From: Deinococcus radiodurans R1 = ATCC 13939 = DSM 20539
GTDB lineage: Bacteria; Deinococcota; Deinococci; Deinococcales; Deinococcaceae
Assembly: GCF_000008565.1 (NCBI RefSeq)
Contig: NC_001263.1
Location: forward strand, 1,057,360-1,089,359
Length of the DNA stretch: 32,000 nt
Direction: 5' to 3'
The notes beneath the pieces are model-generated. The model saw only the letters and a program-made list of their open reading frames with translations. It was not told where the DNA came from and did not search any database. Made by a program: the position numbers and the translations under genes. Within the stretch, counting starts at the first letter, position 1. Each line of letters starts with the position of its first letter. Shown here one piece after another: positions 6,818 through 11,768 of this stretch.

Positions 6818-7566
6818 CCCCCGCAAAAACCGCACCGTCTCCCGCTGCAACATCTCTATCTGTTCGAGCGAGTCATACGTGTGCCCCGCGCCGGGAATCG
6901 CGGTGGCGTCGCAGCGCAGGGCTTCGGCGTACGCACGCCCCACTCCACCGGGCAGGTCTGGTCGCGGTCGCCGTGAAAGACGTGGGCGACCCCACCCCAG
7001 CGGGCCGCGGCCTCCAACGGGCGCGTCTGCACGACTTCTTGCAGGAACGCGCGGCCCAGCGGCCAGCCGCCGTAGTCGCTGATGACCGGGGGCAGCAGTC
7101 CGCCGCGCAGGTGCCGCAGCCACAGCTCGGGCAGCGCGGGCGACCACAGGGCGAAGCGGTGAGGCCGCACTTTTTCGGCGGCCAGGGCGCTGACCAGTCC
7201 GCCCATGCTGTAGCCGAGCAGCATCACCCGCTCGGGGTCGAGGCCGGGTTGGTGGCGCACATAGTCGAAGGCGGCCTCCACGTCCTGCACCTCGCGGCCC
7301 ACCGTCATCTCGGAAAAGTCGCCCTGGCTCTCGCCGCTGCCCCGGCAGTCGAAGCGCAGCGCGGCTATGCCAGCGGCGGTGAGGCGGCGGGCCAGCAGCA
7401 CCAGCAGGCGGTGGCTGCTCACCTTGTCGCCGGTAAACCCATGCACGATGACCACGCTCGGCCAGCCTTGCGGCGGCGCCTGCTGTCCAGTGGCGGAACC
7501 GTCCGGCGTGTGGAGCATTCCGTACATCCGCTGACCCTCGACGCTGAACTGCGCGAACATTTCCAT
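6812..7566 (-). pseudogene. alpha/beta hydrolase with an apparent 1-nt frameshift
   Basis: Nucleophile elbow GYSMGG. After ...HGDRDQTCPVEWG the frame decays. The conserved C-terminus RAYAEALRCDATAIPGAGHTYDSLEQIEMLQRETVRFLRGG*, which carries the catalytic His, is in another frame (track ORF 6812..7147). The junction is at the C4 run 6938..6941. Confidence 0.8.
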
Positions 7567-7573
7567 GCCGCCG

Positions 7574-7579
7574 AGTGTA
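7574..7579 (-). promoter_or_regulatory. -10 box TACACT, 7 nt before ATG 7566
   Basis: Minus strand reads TACACT-cggcggc-ATG with no SD. Confidence 0.45.
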
Positions 7580-7688
7580 CGGGGGCGGGCGCGTCAGACT
7601 GTGCGCCGGGGGACGGTCGGGCGGGTCAGGCAGCGCCGCGACAATGTTTGATGGAGGCGGCGCTTAGCCGGGGCGGCGTGCTACCGGC

Positions 7689-7694
7689 AACAAT
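7689..7694 (+). promoter_or_regulatory. -10-like AACAAT, 6 nt before ATG 7701
   Basis: AACAAT-caggcc-ATG with no SD. Confidence 0.4.
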
Positions 7695-7700
7695 CAGGCC

Positions 7701-7895
7701 ATGAACCAGAATGTCGGGAACCTTGACCGCCTCGTCCGTGCCACCGTCGGCATCGGGCTGCTGATTGTCGCCACCCGCCGCCACGGCCTCGGCAAGCTCG
7801 CTGCGCTGGGCCTGGGCGCCGCGCTGCTTACCACCTCGGCCACCGCCCACTGCCCCGCGTACTCGGCGCTAGGGACCGATACCCTCGACCACTGA
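7701..7895 (+). CDS. DUF2892 (YgaP-like) small membrane protein, 64 aa
   Basis: MNQNVGNLDRLVRATVGIGLL...TSATAHCPAYSALG matches the characteristic DUF2892 pattern (N..DR..R...G and CP.Y...G). Confidence 0.85.
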   Translation: MNQNVGNLDRLVRATVGIGLLIVATRRHGLGKLAALGLGAALLTTSATAHCPAYSALGTDTLDH

Positions 7896-7901
7896 GTCCA
7901 C

Positions 7902-7949
7902 AAAAACCGGGAGAGCCGCAGGCTGTATGCCACGGCTCTCCCGGTTTTT
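7902..7949. terminator. bidirectional intrinsic terminator
   Basis: AAAAACCGGGAGAGCCG - 14-nt loop - CGGCTCTCCCGGTTTTT. Perfect 12-13 bp stem flanked by an A-run and a T-run, between two convergent genes. Confidence 0.85.
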
Positions 7950-7958
7950 AATGATCAT

Positions 7959-9266
7959 TCAGGGCGTCAGCCGGTGCCGGTCACGCGGGAAAGCGCGGGC
8001 ATAGCGCACGTTGGCGATGCCGAGCAGCTTGGCGGTCAGTCGCTCGGCGCCGATGGCGAAGCCGCCGTGCGGGGGCATCCCGTATTTGAAGACCTCGGTG
8101 TAGCCCTCCAGCGATTCGGGTTTGAGTTTGTACGCCGCGATGGAGTCCATCAGCATCCCGTAGTCGTGGATGCGCTGCCCGCCCGAGGTGATTTCGATGC
8201 CCCGGAACAGCAGGTCGAAGCCGCGCGTCACTTCACCGTTCACGCTGCCGTCCTCGTTCAGTTCGGGGTGCGCATAGAAGGGCCGGGCGGCGCGCGGGTA
8301 CTTCGTCACGAACACGAAGTCGCTGCCCTCGGTTTCGGCAAAATGCTGCGAGAGCAGGCGCTCGGCTTCGGGGTCGAGGTCTTTGCCGCCGACCGGGTGG
8401 CCGTATTTTTCCGTCACCAGTTGCCGGGCGTCCATCAGCGTGATGCGGGGAATGTGCGCCGGCACGTCGGGAATCGTCGCGCCCAGCAGCTCAAACTCGG
8501 CCTGCGAGGTGGCCCGCAGCCGCTCCATGATGCTCGCCAGCAGGCGGTTCTCGAGGCCCATCACGTCTTCCTCGTCCTCAATGAAGCCCATTTCCACGTC
8601 GAGCGACAGGTATTCGTTGAGGTGACGGCTGGTGGCGTGCTCCTCGGCGCGGTAGACGGCGGCGACTTCGAAGACGCGCTCGAACACGCCGACCATAATC
8701 TGCTTGTAGAGCTGCGGGCTCTGCGCGAGGTAGGCCGGGTGCCCGAAATAGTCGATGGGGAAGAGGTTCGCCCCGCCTTCCGCGCCCGCCGACACGATTT
8801 TGGGCGTGCTGATTTCGGTAAAGCCCTCGCCGCGCAGGTGCGCCCGGAAGGCGTCCACCAGTTCGGCCTGCACCTTGAGCGCCGCCCGCTCCTTGAGCCC
8901 GCGCACCGTCACCACGCGGTAGTCGAGCATCGTTTCGGGGTTGACGTTCCACTCCATTTTGGGGATTTCCACCGGGGTGGCCTCGGTCGCCGCCGAGATG
9001 ACGCGGAAGTCTTCCACCTGCACCTCGAAGCCGCCGGGCGCTTTGGGGTGGGCCTTGACCTTGCCGACGACTTCCACGCTGCTCTCGGCCAGGGGAAGGG
9101 TCAGGCCGCTGCCCACGCACTGGGTCACGCCGGTCACGTCGCGCAGCACCAAAAATTGCACGCCCCCCAGGTCGCGGCGGGCGTGGACGAAGCCTTGAAG
9201 TTTAACGGTCTGCCCCTCATGTTGGGGCAGTTCACGGGTCAGCGTGCGTTTGAGTGGGCTGGTCAT
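7959..9266 (-). CDS. aspS: archaeal/eukaryal-type aspartyl-tRNA synthetase (AspRS2, non-discriminating type), 435 aa
   Basis: Short AspRS lacking the bacterial GAD insertion. Class II motifs: ...FRAEEHATSRHLNEY..., ...GGQRIH..., ...GGFAIGAERL.... ATG 9266 is preceded by AAGGAG (9278..9273). The track start at 9413 is inside the leader. Confidence 0.96.
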   Translation of the reverse strand: MTSPLKRTLTRELPQHEGQTVKLQGFVHARRDLGGVQFLVLRDVTGVTQCVGSGLTLPLAESSVEVVGKVKAHPKAPGGFEVQVEDFRVISAATEATPVEIPKMEWNVNPETMLDYRVVTVRGLKERAALKVQAELVDAFRAHLRGEGFTEISTPKIVSAGAEGGANLFPIDYFGHPAYLAQSPQLYKQIMVGVFERVFEVAAVYRAEEHATSRHLNEYLSLDVEMGFIEDEEDVMGLENRLLASIMERLRATSQAEFELLGATIPDVPAHIPRITLMDARQLVTEKYGHPVGGKDLDPEAERLLSQHFAETEGSDFVFVTKYPRAARPFYAHPELNEDGSVNGEVTRGFDLLFRGIEITSGGQRIHDYGMLMDSIAAYKLKPESLEGYTEVFKYGMPPHGGFAIGAERLTAKLLGIANVRYARAFPRDRHRLTP

Positions 9267-9283
9267 GAGTCTCTCCTTGAACG

Positions 9284-9310
9284 AAAAACCCCCGCCGGGG
9301 TGGGCGGGGG
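9284..9310 (-). terminator. intrinsic terminator (attenuator 3:4 hairpin) in the aspS2 leader
   Basis: Minus strand reads CCCCCGCC-cacccc-GGCGGGGG-TTTTT. 8-bp all-GC stem. The T-run ends 17 nt before the aspS2 ATG. Confidence 0.8.
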
Positions 9311-9334
9311 CGCGGCCATACGACGAGGCGTCCC

Positions 9335-9376
9335 CTAGCGGGAATCGTCGTTGTCGTTGTTCAGTGCCGCGAACAT
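9335..9376 (-). CDS. candidate leader peptide MFAALNNDNDDSR (13 codons)
   Basis: ATG TTC GCG GCA CTG AAC AAC GAC AAC GAC GAT TCC CGC TAG. Six consecutive Asn/Asp codons. The start lies 7 nt after a TACACT -10 box. The stop codon abuts the antiterminator segment. Confidence 0.6.
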   Translation of the reverse strand: MFAALNNDNDDSR

Positions 9377-9383
9377 GGTGCAG

Positions 9384-9413
9384 AGTGTAGCCGCCGCAGC
9401 GCAGCGGGGTCAA
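9384..9413 (-). promoter_or_regulatory. promoter of the aspS2 leader (-35 TTGACC, 18 nt, -10 TACACT)
   Basis: Minus strand has TTGACC at 9413..9408 and TACACT at 9389..9384. The leader ATG follows 7 nt downstream. Confidence 0.6.
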
Positions 9414-9466
9414 AGGGGGCGGCTAGGCAGGGGGGAGTGAGGAAAAAATTTGGTTTGCGGACTCCC

Positions 9467-10750
9467 TCACCCCGCCTTCCGCACCTCCGGTACGTTGCGG
9501 ACCAGCACCACGCCGAGCAGGAAAAACAGCGCCGCGCTGCCGAAGACGAGCACATACCCGAAGTTGTCGCCGTGCCGGTTGCCCCAGTCGAGGAGTGCGC
9601 CCATCGGCAGGTTGACGAACTGCGGCGCGACGAAGGCGACGTGCCAGATGCCCATGTCGCGGGCGTAGCTGCTGCGGCTCGGCATGGCGTCGGCGCCCAG
9701 CGCCCAGTCCACGCTGGTAAACGCCCCGAAGCCCAAGCCGAAGCAAAACGCCAGCAGCAGCGCGAAGGTGAAGCTCGGCGCGACGAGCAGCAGCAGCGCC
9801 GTGACCGTCATGACCGTGCCTGCGAAATAAATGACCGGCTTGCGCCCGATGCGGTCACTCAGCCGCCCGCCCACCACGGCGGAGATGATGGACGCGATGA
9901 CGATGCACGCGAGCAGCAGGGAACTGCTCATCACCGGGTCTTTTTGCCGCAGCACGTCGCCTGCGTAGAACTGCAAAAACGGCTGCACGCTGTACTGCCC
10001 GAGTGCGAACAGCACCCGCGTGATAAACACCCATTTGAACGGCGCGTAGGCGAACAGCTCGCGCCAGGGGAGCACCTCACCCGGCGCGGCGGGGGCCACC
10101 GCTTCGGCCTGCTCCACCACCCCCCGGATAGTGATAACTGCCGCCACGAGCAGCAGCGCCGCCATCAGCACAAAGGGGAGGCTCGCCCCGTAGTGGCTGC
10201 CGATGGCGACGCCCGCCGCCGCGCCCAGCAGTTGCCCCAGCGCTTGCAAGGTGCCCATCGCCCCGCTGTAGCGCCCGCGCTGCTCCGGCGGCACGAGCTG
10301 CGGAATCAGGGCCGAATACGGCGCGGTGGCGTAGTTGTTGCCGAACTGCACCAGCACGAAGCCGAGCACGTATACCCAGAAGCCCGTACTCCCGGCGAGC
10401 AGGCCCACCGCCGCGCCCATCACCGCCAGCCCCGCCACGTTGATGCCCACGCCCAGGCGCAGGTAAGGCAGCCGCCGCCCCGTCTTGTCCGAGTGCGCCC
10501 CCACCAGCGGCGGCACGACCAGCGCAATCGCCGCGCCGATGGCCCCCAGCAGCCCCAGGTACGTGCCCTTGTGCGCCGCGCCCATGAACCCCACCACATG
10601 CGCAGGCATGTAGATGGTCAGCAGCATCAGCCACAGGAAGGCCGTTCCGAACCAGAACGCCGACAGCACCCAGGGGCTGGGCAATGGGGGGCTGGGCAAC
10701 GGGGAATGGGGCAAGGCAGCGGCGGGCCGCGCAGCAGGAGGAAGTGTCAT
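9467..10750 (-). CDS. MFS transporter, 427 aa
   Basis: About 12 predicted hydrophobic helices. The MFS loop motif ...[12 protein letters not shown]... lies between TM2 and TM3. ATG 10750 (MTLPPAARP...) chosen. The stop lies in a GGGGTGAGGGAG motif. Confidence 0.9.
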
Positions 10751-10775
10751 GTGGGGAACAGTGTAGGGAGTTGCG

Positions 10776-11768
10776 TCAGTCCTGTGCCAACGTCCGAACC
10801 TGCTCCCCGAGGCCGCCCCACACCATCTCAATGAACGCCGGTTCGGGCTGGAACCCCAGCCGTGTGTTGATGGCGAGCATGGGCGCGTTGGCGGTCGCGT
10901 TGTGGGTCACGACCCGGCGGATGCCCTGGGCGTGCGCGAGGTTCAGCGAGTGGCGTTTGAGCGCCAGCGCCAGCCCCCGGCGACGGTGCGCGCGGGCGGT
11001 GCCGGTCAGGCCGGTGTTCAGCGCGTGCGGGTCGGCGAGGTCGCGCCACAGTTCGGTGAGCGCCGCCACCTCGCCCGCCTGCGTGACTGCCAGCCAGAGG
11101 CCGTCCGGGAAGAAGGTGGGGTGCTGCACGTAGGCCCGAATGTCGTCCAGGCTGTACGGCTGCGCGGGAATGCGGCGCGGCTCGTCGGCGCGGGCCTCGT
11201 TGAAGGTGCGGCGGAAGGCGCCCAGCGCGGGCGTCTCCCCGAGGTCGGCCACGAAGTCCGGCAGGCTCCGCAGGCGGTATCCGGCGGGCAGGTCGGCGGG
11301 TTGCGACGTCCAGGTGGTCAAGTCCAGGACGTTGGTGAACTCGCGTTCCAGTTCGCTGAACCCGCGCGCTTGCAGGAAGGCGACGGCGTGCGGCTCGTCC
11401 TCCCGCGCGCCGGCCAGCACTTCGCGGGCGCCGCGTTCCTTCAGATGGGTGCGTACCGTCGCCGCCAGCACCGCGCCGACACCCCGTCGCCCGTGCTCCG
11501 GCGGCACTGTGACCGTGACGTTGTAGCGGTCGGGCTGGTGCGACCCGGCCCACTGCGTGACACCCGCGAAGCCCACGATTTTACTGCCGCGCTCGGCCAC
11601 CCACTGCGCCAGGTGCAGGCCCTTGGGGTGGGTGCGGGTGTTCTCGGCGGCGACCCGCAGTTGCTCGGCGGTCACCGTCTGGCCGGGCCGCGCGGCGGTG
11701 AGGACGGCCCCGACCGCCGGATAATCGGCTTCCGTCGCTTCTCTGATGTGAACTGTCCTGTCGTTCAT
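10776..11768 (-). CDS. two-domain GNAT family N-acetyltransferase, 330 aa
   Basis: Two acetyl-CoA binding motifs ([17 protein letters not shown]). Paralogous to the upstream gene. ATG 11768 overlaps the restored stop of that gene (ATGA). Confidence 0.9.

Follow-up and report, generated by a model that had tools for sequence, protein, structure and literature searches.

A putative leader-peptide attenuator reading asparagine and aspartate codons upstream of aspS2 in Deinococcus radiodurans and across the Deinococcota

In the classical leader-peptide attenuators of Escherichia coli, that is, trpL and the his, leu, thr, ilv and pheA leaders, a short leader open reading frame (ORF) with clustered cognate codons is combined with alternative 1:2, 2:3 and 3:4 RNA pairings, and the regulated gene is preceded immediately by an intrinsic terminator. 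The helices of the trp leader have energies of about -11, -12 and -20 kcal/mol, with 3:4 being the most stable. In the pheST attenuator of the same bacterium, the leader peptide pheM precedes the gene for phenylalanyl-tRNA synthetase, and what is sensed is the charging of the enzyme's own tRNA. Here we analyze a 32,000-nucleotide (nt) stretch of the Deinococcus radiodurans R1 genome (NC_001263.1; hereinafter, the window, in which position 1 is the first nucleotide) that contains an element of similar organization. The element is read on the minus strand and is located upstream of aspS2 (7959-9266, minus strand, with the ATG at 9266), which encodes a 435 aa archaeal-type non-discriminating aspartate--tRNA(Asp/Asn) ligase. 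We consider it likely that transcription of aspS2 is controlled by ribosome-mediated (leader-peptide) attenuation in response to Asn-tRNA(Asn) and Asp-tRNA(Asp). This reading is based on sequence elements, phylum-wide conservation, a constraint on the reading frame, geometry, and folding states obtained in silico.

The aspS2 leader resembles the trpL-type attenuators in its clustered cognate codons, in the three predicted alternative pairings and in the position of the terminator; as in trpL itself, no helix is more stable than the terminator, and control would thus be kinetic. Unlike these attenuators, it appears to sense two amino acids, Asn and Asp, via interchangeable codons; it contains an additional helix at the 5' end, denoted P0; and its target, an aminoacyl-tRNA synthetase (aaRS), takes part in amino-acid biosynthesis on tRNA. 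The aspS2 leader is not related to the trpL-type families by sequence or in Rfam. The pheST system is alike in being a leader-peptide attenuator in front of an aaRS gene and differs in its Phe codons, in an ORF led by a Shine-Dalgarno (SD) sequence and in its proteobacterial origin; furthermore, unlike pheST, the aspS2 leader would read both tRNA substrates of the enzyme, and the pathway served by this enzyme also makes the free amino-acid pool.

The closest precedent in the same genus comes from Deinococcus deserti. According to the main text of de Groot et al. 2014 (PMC4007540), the start codon forms the very 5' end of 47% of the mRNAs of this bacterium and is directly preceded by the -10 element, and 14 leaderless leader peptides are predicted before aaRS and amino-acid biosynthesis genes, of which cysS and trpEGD are shown. 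As described there, these leaders share with the aspS2 leader the -10 directly before a 5'-AUG (predicted in the case of aspS2), a tiny ORF rich in the cognate residue, and a downstream aaRS gene with an SD of its own. The aspS2 mini-ORF fits this description in that its predicted short product abounds in residues cognate to the SD-bearing aaRS gene that follows. The main text of that paper names only cysS and trpEGD and never uses the terms 'aspS', 'Asn' or 'asparagine'; the aspS2 leader may already be among the 14 predictions (Table S9 of that study). Unlike the present analysis, the main-text passages on the leaders contain no structural, comparative or phylum-wide treatment. Leaderless polycysteine short ORFs of mycobacteria are reported (bioRxiv 10.1101/834739) to be likewise one-residue-rich, amino-acid-responsive attenuators of downstream genes and differ in that the residue is Cys, not Asn/Asp, and in their occurrence in Actinobacteria. 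The Asn/Asp T-boxes before asnS and aspS in Firmicutes are alike in purpose, allowing terminator readthrough when the cognate tRNA is uncharged, and stand before genes of one family with aspS2; a T-box, however, senses uncharged tRNA directly, without a ribosome, and the leader in the window has no T-box features. The initial annotation of this stretch knew of no leader-peptide attenuator described for an AspRS or for the tRNA-dependent asparagine pathway. Indeed, neither an Asn/Asp leader peptide nor the regulation of aspS2 was found described in the searchable literature, but the novelty is narrowed by the leaderless leader peptides already published for the aaRS genes of D. deserti (PMC4007540). 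The aspS2 leader is thus a real, probably undescribed case of a known class, the leader-peptide attenuators; what is new, as far as found, is the phylum-wide conservation, the dual Asn/Asp read-out, the P0 helix and the existence of three clade-specific architectures.

The elements of the leader are arranged compactly between the promoter and aspS2, and the sequences and coordinates reported for them in the initial annotation (promoter, mini-ORF, pairing segments, terminator, SD and aspS2 start codon) are correct base for base. The sigma-70-type promoter (9384-9413, minus strand, as are all the features that follow) consists of the -35 element TTGACC (9413-9408), an 18-nt spacer and the -10 element TACACT (9389-9384), and is the only sigma-70-like site in the region 7500-11500, where 0.3 such sites are expected. 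The putatively leaderless mini-ORF (9335-9376) starts 7 nt after the -10 and comprises 13 codons followed by the stop codon TAG at 9337-9335 (ATG TTC GCG GCA CTG AAC AAC GAC AAC GAC GAT TCC CGC TAG); its product is MFAALNNDNDDSR. Codons 6-11 (9344-9361; AAC AAC GAC AAC GAC GAT, that is, N N D N D D) are the putative regulatory codons. The terminator hairpin, CCCCCGCC-CACCCC-GGCGGGGG (9310-9289), is followed by T5; together with the U5 tract, it spans 9311-9284 and contains 9 pairs, 8 of which are G-C. The SD of aspS2, AAGGAG (9273-9278), lies 3' of the terminator and is not sequestered. The earlier identification of the downstream gene as an archaeal-type AspRS is borne out by protein family models: the product matches NF003483, aspartate--tRNA(Asn) ligase, with 562.8 bits (cut-off 353) and also TIGR00458, aspS_nondisc, with 380 bits. 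This unit, a -10 element followed by a leaderless short ORF and a terminator, is present in a single copy in the window, with no others found by search.

The minimum free energy (MFE) structure of the window leader contains three helices, namely, P0, P1 and the terminator. P1, the 1:2 pairing of the initial annotation, joins segment 1 (9340-9351), ACGACGAUUCCC, with segment 2 (9320-9335), GGGGA...UCGUCGU; this pairing and the 3:4 terminator are both part of the MFE. The antiterminator, the earlier 2:3 pairing, would be formed by GGGGACGC (9335-9328), which serves as both the 3' strand of P1 and the 5' strand of the antiterminator, and GCGCCCCC; its 3' strand GCGCCCC (9313-9307) overlaps the terminator 5' arm CCCCCGCC (9310-9303) within segment 3 (9303-9313). 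Segment 4 (9284-9296) consists of the terminator 3' arm GGCGGGGG (9296-9289) and the TTTTT tract (9288-9284). The P0 helix, which was missed by the earlier reader and is additional to the 1:2, 2:3, 3:4 scheme, pairs CGCGGC within codons 2-4 of the mini-ORF (9371-9366) with GCCGCG (9316-9311), a strand that directly adjoins the terminator and shares GCG with the antiterminator 3' strand. The computed energies are -15.0 kcal/mol for P1 (1:2), -14.5 for the antiterminator (2:3), -20.0 for the terminator (3:4) and -25.0 for P0 and P1 together.

For comparative analysis, we used 80 aspS2 loci, one genome per species, of which L001-L023 are from Deinococcus and the rest from Trueperaceae, Thermus, Meiothermus, Calidithermus, other Deinococcota and one member of Limnochordia. 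The unit composed of the promoter, the leaderless Asn/Asp (N/D) ORF and the terminator was identified in about 66-69 of the 80 loci, and it is retained where the upstream sequence is unrelated; the counts of promoters, frames, geometry and clusters given below refer to 66 leaders. The pattern TTGAC(C/A)-17/18-TANNNT-6/7-ATG is present in 66/66. Thus, the mini-ORF with an Asn/Asp run and the hairpins, which the initial annotation proposed to seek in orthologous leaders, are found throughout the phylum.

The details of the architecture are clade-specific. In Deinococcus, where 22 of the 23 loci contain the unit, the ORF conforms to M[FI]AA..NN[DVS][ND][ND]D[PS]x followed by the stop, and GGGGACGC overlaps the last base of the UAG stop codon and is followed by CGCGCCCCCGAC-loop-GUCGGGGG and a U-tract. 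The GGGGACG sequence is invariant or nearly so in the 23 Deinococcus leaders, and CGCGCCCCC is nearly invariant. The AspRS2 encoded in the window shares 91% identity with its counterparts in D. xinjiangensis and Deinococcus sp. VB343. The mini-ORFs of Thermus include MRPRLRNNER, MCPRLLNNG and MRLPQGNDA, and those of Meiothermus and Calidithermus MLR[TA]DNN[PL], MLRRWDDNP and MRGLLNNDR, each terminated by a stop codon. In Trueperaceae, the mini-ORFs end with ...(R)DDN(S)xxxxxLGA and the stop, the DDN codons being 6-8 codons 5' of the latter, and the G-rich antiterminator strand CUCGGGG is encoded by the final codons, L-G-A-stop. Across the phylum, the mini-ORF length varies from 8 to 30 codons.

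The Asn/Asp codon cluster is far beyond chance expectation. With background frequencies of 0.017 for Asn, 0.045 for Asp and 0.062 for both combined in the long ORFs of related loci, the binomial probability of at least 6 N/D in 12 codons is about 4e-5; in the window, the six are consecutive. Among all leader residues, Asn accounts for 13.6% and Asp for 13.8%, compared with 1.5-1.7% and 4.5-4.8%, respectively, in long ORFs, which amounts to an 8- to 9-fold enrichment for Asn and a 3-fold enrichment for Asp. If a cluster is taken to require 3 or more N/D, at least one of them an N, within 4 residues, it is present in 57/66 leaders vs 1/519 non-leader short ATG-ORFs of the Deinococcus loci and about 6/1160 control short ORFs of the non-Deinococcus loci; three more matches in the control set (L035, L036 and L067) proved to be true leaders. 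Within Deinococcus, N and D are swapped at homologous positions, and AAC alternates with AAT and GAC with GAT, which points to a constraint on RAY codons rather than on a fixed sequence.

The cluster is also kept in frame. The promoter and the start codon were located blind to ORF content, and RAYRAY hexamers were counted in the next 110 nt; for a non-coding motif, one third would be expected in frame. In fact, 168 of the 176 hexamers are in the ATG frame (frame 0), which is the majority frame in 65/66 loci, even though the cluster may lie as few as 3 or as many as 19 codons from the ATG. Frame conservation, together with the interchange of N and D and the synonymous changes, indirectly suggests that the mini-ORF is translated. 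Similarly, the sequence is consistent with a transcription start within 1 nt of the leader AUG, given the 7 nt between TACACT and the ATG in the window and the 6/7 nt spacing in 66/66 leaders.

The codons of the cluster show a bias of their own. AAU makes up 33-73% of the Asn codons in leaders vs 6-15% in aspS2, and GAU 39-67% of the Asp codons (Thermaceae excepted) vs 10-14% in aspS2; in the leaders of Trueperaceae, the block GAC GAU AAU is nearly fixed. This excess of U-ending wobble codons could reflect either tuning of sensitivity or a structural constraint.

Conservation of the pairings differs between the helices. The initial annotation described the 1:2 pairing as 7 + 4 base pairs (bp); the core, CGAUUCCC in the window (9347-9340) and CGAUYCCC:GGGGACG in Deinococcus at large, is conserved, the sole changes being C-to-U replacements that yield G-U wobble pairs, all on the coding side, whereas the ACGACGA:UCGUCGU extension (3' strand 9326-9320) is merely lineage-specific. 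RNAalifold applied to the 23 Deinococcus leaders recovered P1 and the terminator and no two-sided covariation, because these sequences are too conserved. P0 is present in most Deinococcus leaders (mean z 2.5 vs shuffles) and shows compensatory variants, namely, CGCGGC/GCCGCG, CACGGCG/CGCCGUG, CGUGCGGC/GCCGCACG and GCGGCUG/CAGCCGC; the pairing of codons 2-4 in P0 accounts for the conservation of the peptide N-terminus, M-F/I-A-A (UCGCGGC), at the nucleotide level. In Trueperaceae, for which alignment A2 and 500 shuffles were used, the terminator is 94% paired and shows significant covariation (0/500 shuffles reach the observed score). The compensatory changes that the initial annotation proposed to seek in the stems were detected in P0 and in the Trueperaceae terminator but not, at a significant level, in the antiterminator. 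Complementarity for the latter is nevertheless found in 66/66 leaders, with a median of -16.9 kcal/mol, and the Trueperaceae antiterminator CUCGGGG:CCCCGAG is 89.7% paired vs about 65% when slid by one column. The case for the antiterminator, as read from the alignments, rests on conservation of both strands, on clade-specific complementary flanks (ACGC:GCG, CUC:GAG) and on geometry, not on covariation.

In six Trueperaceae leaders (L050, L062, L064, L065, L070 and L076), a CGAG(G) run between the DDN and LGA codons can pair with the antiterminator CUCG, and a GUCGUC-like strand immediately 3' of the stop codon offers a partner for GACGAU. By eye, these pairings are a possible P1-like anti-antiterminator, as in Deinococcus.

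The geometry of the leaders fits the expectations for an attenuator. In 66/66 leaders, the antiterminator 5' strand begins between -12 and +4 nt from the first base of the stop codon, so that a terminating ribosome would cover this strand; the first N/D codon precedes it by 9-32 nt (median 21), which means that this strand would stay free with a ribosome stalled early in the cluster. Folding of the nascent RNA, which was cut before the terminator 3' arm and masked by a ribosome from A-15 to A+11, was then read out as the fraction of the terminator 5' arm that is already paired; Deinococcus bulged terminators were defined by local MFE. In Deinococcus, this fraction is 0.05-0.3 in free RNA, 0.5-0.7 with the ribosome on the N/D codons and 0.1-0.2 with the ribosome on the last codons or the stop. 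In Trueperaceae, it is mostly 0.6-0.98 in free RNA, stays high through DDN, falls right after DDN and is about 0.4 on the last codons or the stop. For the window leader, free RNA is in the terminator state. With codon 6 in the A site, P1 is kept and there is no antiterminator; with any of codons 7-11 (N D N D D) in the A site, and only at these positions, the antiterminator forms; and with codon 12, codon 13 or the stop in the A site, P0 forms anew and the terminator arm stays unpaired. In these folding models, the geometry lets a stalled ribosome permit the antiterminator and a ribosome at the stop block it, and the window leader shows the three-state behavior of a classical attenuator. All sequence-level predictions of the trp-style logic proposed in the initial annotation that were open to testing held.

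These features suggest a specific course of events. Transcription would start with the A of the leader ATG or with an adjacent nucleotide, producing a leaderless mRNA, the 13 codons of which would be translated by a 70S ribosome behind the moving RNA polymerase; a possible polymerase pause would synchronize the two. If no ribosome is loaded, the 5' end would pair with GCCGCG (P0), and CGAUUCCC with GGGGACG (P1); with both helices formed, the C-rich 5' arm of the terminator would stay free, leading to termination at about 9284. Scarcity of Asn-tRNA(Asn) or Asp-tRNA(Asp) would stall the ribosome with one of codons 7-11 in the A site, and the footprint of the stalled ribosome would melt P0 and P1, leaving GGGGACGC exposed. 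Once made, GCGCCCCC would pair with the exposed strand, so that the start of the terminator arm is sequestered and the polymerase reads through into aspS2. When charged tRNAs are plentiful, the ribosome would reach the UAG and cover GGGGACGC, P0 would re-form behind it, and the terminator would form. The output would be more of the non-discriminating AspRS, which aminoacylates tRNA(Asp) as well as tRNA(Asn) and supplies GatCAB with its substrate. In this scheme, we infer where transcription starts, that the ORF is translated and that ribosomes stall on it, as well as the kinetic competition (with a polymerase pause, if there is one) and the physiological signal.

Several observations weigh against this scheme. 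The loci are phylogenetically related, so the counts overstate independence. In Trueperaceae, the covariation of the antiterminator is not significant (31/500 shuffles reach the observed score); in Deinococcus, its pairing with the terminator arm alone is no better than in dinucleotide shuffles (z -0.3); and the complementarity is mostly that of a G-run with a C-run. Equilibrium folding of full-length leaders with a ribosome mask lets the terminator win at every position in most leaders and does not separate the states, so the switch decision would have to be kinetic. In some Thermaceae, the last N codon is just 3-7 nt from the antiterminator strand, so that the ribosome would have to stall at the beginning of the cluster to leave this strand free. 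Four Thermus loci (L029, L034, L046 and L072) have, in leader regions about 100 nt upstream of aspS2, a 10-14 bp hairpin without a U-tract, whereas other Thermaceae have U5-6 after the hairpin; these four retain the leaderless NN mini-ORF and the G-run/C-run alternative pairing. Finally, one Deinococcus metagenome-assembled genome (MAG; L018, 1308-1409) carries a decayed leader in which the promoter and the hairpin are kept, the ORF product is MCAVAVSRRANFGH, with a single Asn, GGGGACGC is changed to CAGGGACGC, and the U-tract is poor.

Among the alternatives, the one that fares best, although we consider it unlikely, is a translation-coupled attenuator which, like others of the coupling type, would respond to the overall capacity for translation or to ribosome loading and not specifically to Asn/Asp-tRNA charging, with the N/D codons being a by-product of RNA structure imposed on a RAY-rich segment. 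Indeed, several of these codons lie inside pairing strands (GAU is part of the P1 core, and GACGAU faces GUCGUC-like strands), and in Trueperaceae and Thermaceae free RNA already favors the antiterminator, so that timely arrival of the ribosome at the stop could be the main variable. However, the N/D cluster persists in clades with wholly different pairing partners, outside the conserved helices; the same positions show N/D swaps as well as synonymous C/T changes; Asn is enriched to the extent described above; and the two amino acids match exactly both tRNA substrates of the enzyme.

Still less probable, in our judgment, is a ribosome-independent RNA switch, in which the leader would bind a protein, for example AspRS2, or an uncharged tRNA and the mini-ORF would be incidental. 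GGGGACGC and CGCGCCCCC are conserved beyond the needs of a generic hairpin, and both autoregulation by an aaRS (as by ThrRS on its own operator) and T-boxes are known. Moreover, a T-box leader precedes one homolog in our set: in a Limnochordia MAG (L080; aspS2 homolog with 51% identity), positions 2200-2457 match RF00230 with 79.9 bits (E 6.6e-18), which is below the gathering score of 93, and the specifier is probably GAC (Asp), within GGAAGGACACC. This implies that charging-dependent control of this class of aspS2 genes arose more than once. In the window, however, an Rfam scan detected no families at the gathering score, T-box and amino-acid leader families included, and a scan of 9200-9480 up to E = 10 gave no T-box and only chance-level matches to unrelated families; there is no anticodon-like loop in the leader, the P1 loop being GCUA. 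Furthermore, the ORF frame is kept in 65/66 loci despite the length changes, the start codon is at a fixed distance from the -10, and in each clade the position of the stop codon goes with that of the antiterminator strand.

It is highly improbable that the locus merely combines an ordinary promoter with a leaky terminator, or with the terminator of the upstream MFS-transporter gene (ending at 9467), with the rest being due to chance in G+C-rich DNA. Complementarity of G-runs and C-runs is common at such composition, and the fold of the whole window leader stands out only modestly (z = -2.0), but this explanation is contradicted by the comparative data, given the near-absence of N/D clusters from control short ORFs and the retention of the unit next to unrelated upstream sequences. 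Assignment of the hairpin to the upstream gene was rejected: the promoter lies between the two, and in L015-L017 the gene upstream of the leader is divergent. No better founded is the proposal that the main role of the mini-ORF is to encode a functional micropeptide acting in trans, as in the case of the published rhizobial leader peptide peTrpL (PMC7298713): the peptide is conserved within Deinococcus (MFAA...NDPR), but phylum-wide nothing is retained except the N/D cluster and the place of the stop codon, the length ranges from 8 to 30 residues, and the C-terminal residues follow the overlapped RNA strand (LGA and the stop being CUCGGGGCNUAG).

Some of the loci depart from the common organization. 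In four uncultured bacteria (L027, L031, L032 and L049; about 62% identity), there is no separate leader, and aspS2 starts 1-4 nt after a long ORF. This preceding ORF ends with ...TGC AAT AAT CAC TGA (C-N-N-H-stop), that is, with two Asn codons next to the coupled start of aspS2, which may be a coincidence. In five A+T-rich loci, no leader was seen, and Rfam at the gathering score found nothing in the 11 loci without an obvious leader.

The promoter is accompanied by one more conserved element. The octamer CTGCCTAG occurs once in the window, at 9423-9430, 9 nt 5' of the -35, and its position is conserved among Deinococcus: it lies 8-10 nt 5' of the -35 in most of the aspS2 promoters of this genus (L001-L013, L022 and L023), where the sequence farther upstream is unrelated, and it is absent from the promoters of Thermaceae and Trueperaceae. 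This octamer may be a transcription-factor or UP-like site and, being specific to Deinococcus, could add a second, transcription-factor layer to the control of aspS2.

If the leader-peptide attenuator is real, it would extend classical leader-peptide attenuation to Asn/Asp and would represent a well-replicated leaderless attenuator in which three clade architectures embody one logic, which makes it useful for studying the evolution of switches; it would also provide a compact asparagine/aspartate-responsive part for engineering of Deinococcus and Thermus. D. radiodurans and T. thermophilus lack AsnA and AsnB, and the non-discriminating AspRS together with GatCAB is their sole route to asparagine (PMC2330236); how the formation of amide aminoacyl-tRNAs is tied to cellular needs was considered unclear in the same review. 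The attenuator would provide a concrete answer to this question: the first enzyme of the asparagine pathway would be set by the charging of both tRNAs that it serves. More tentatively, and as a possibility that we would not yet rate as probable, an ancient, phylum-wide, dual-input attenuator might govern tRNA-dependent asparagine synthesis, with the interchangeable Asn/Asp codons of a single leaderless mini-ORF, preferentially AAU and GAU read by wobble, reporting on the pools of both the precursor (Asp-tRNA-Asp) and the product (Asn-tRNA-Asn). If so, no attenuator for Asn or Asp would have been described before it, and in organisms devoid of AsnA and AsnB it would supply the regulatory connection, so far missing, between the making of amide aminoacyl-tRNAs and the availability of asparagine.

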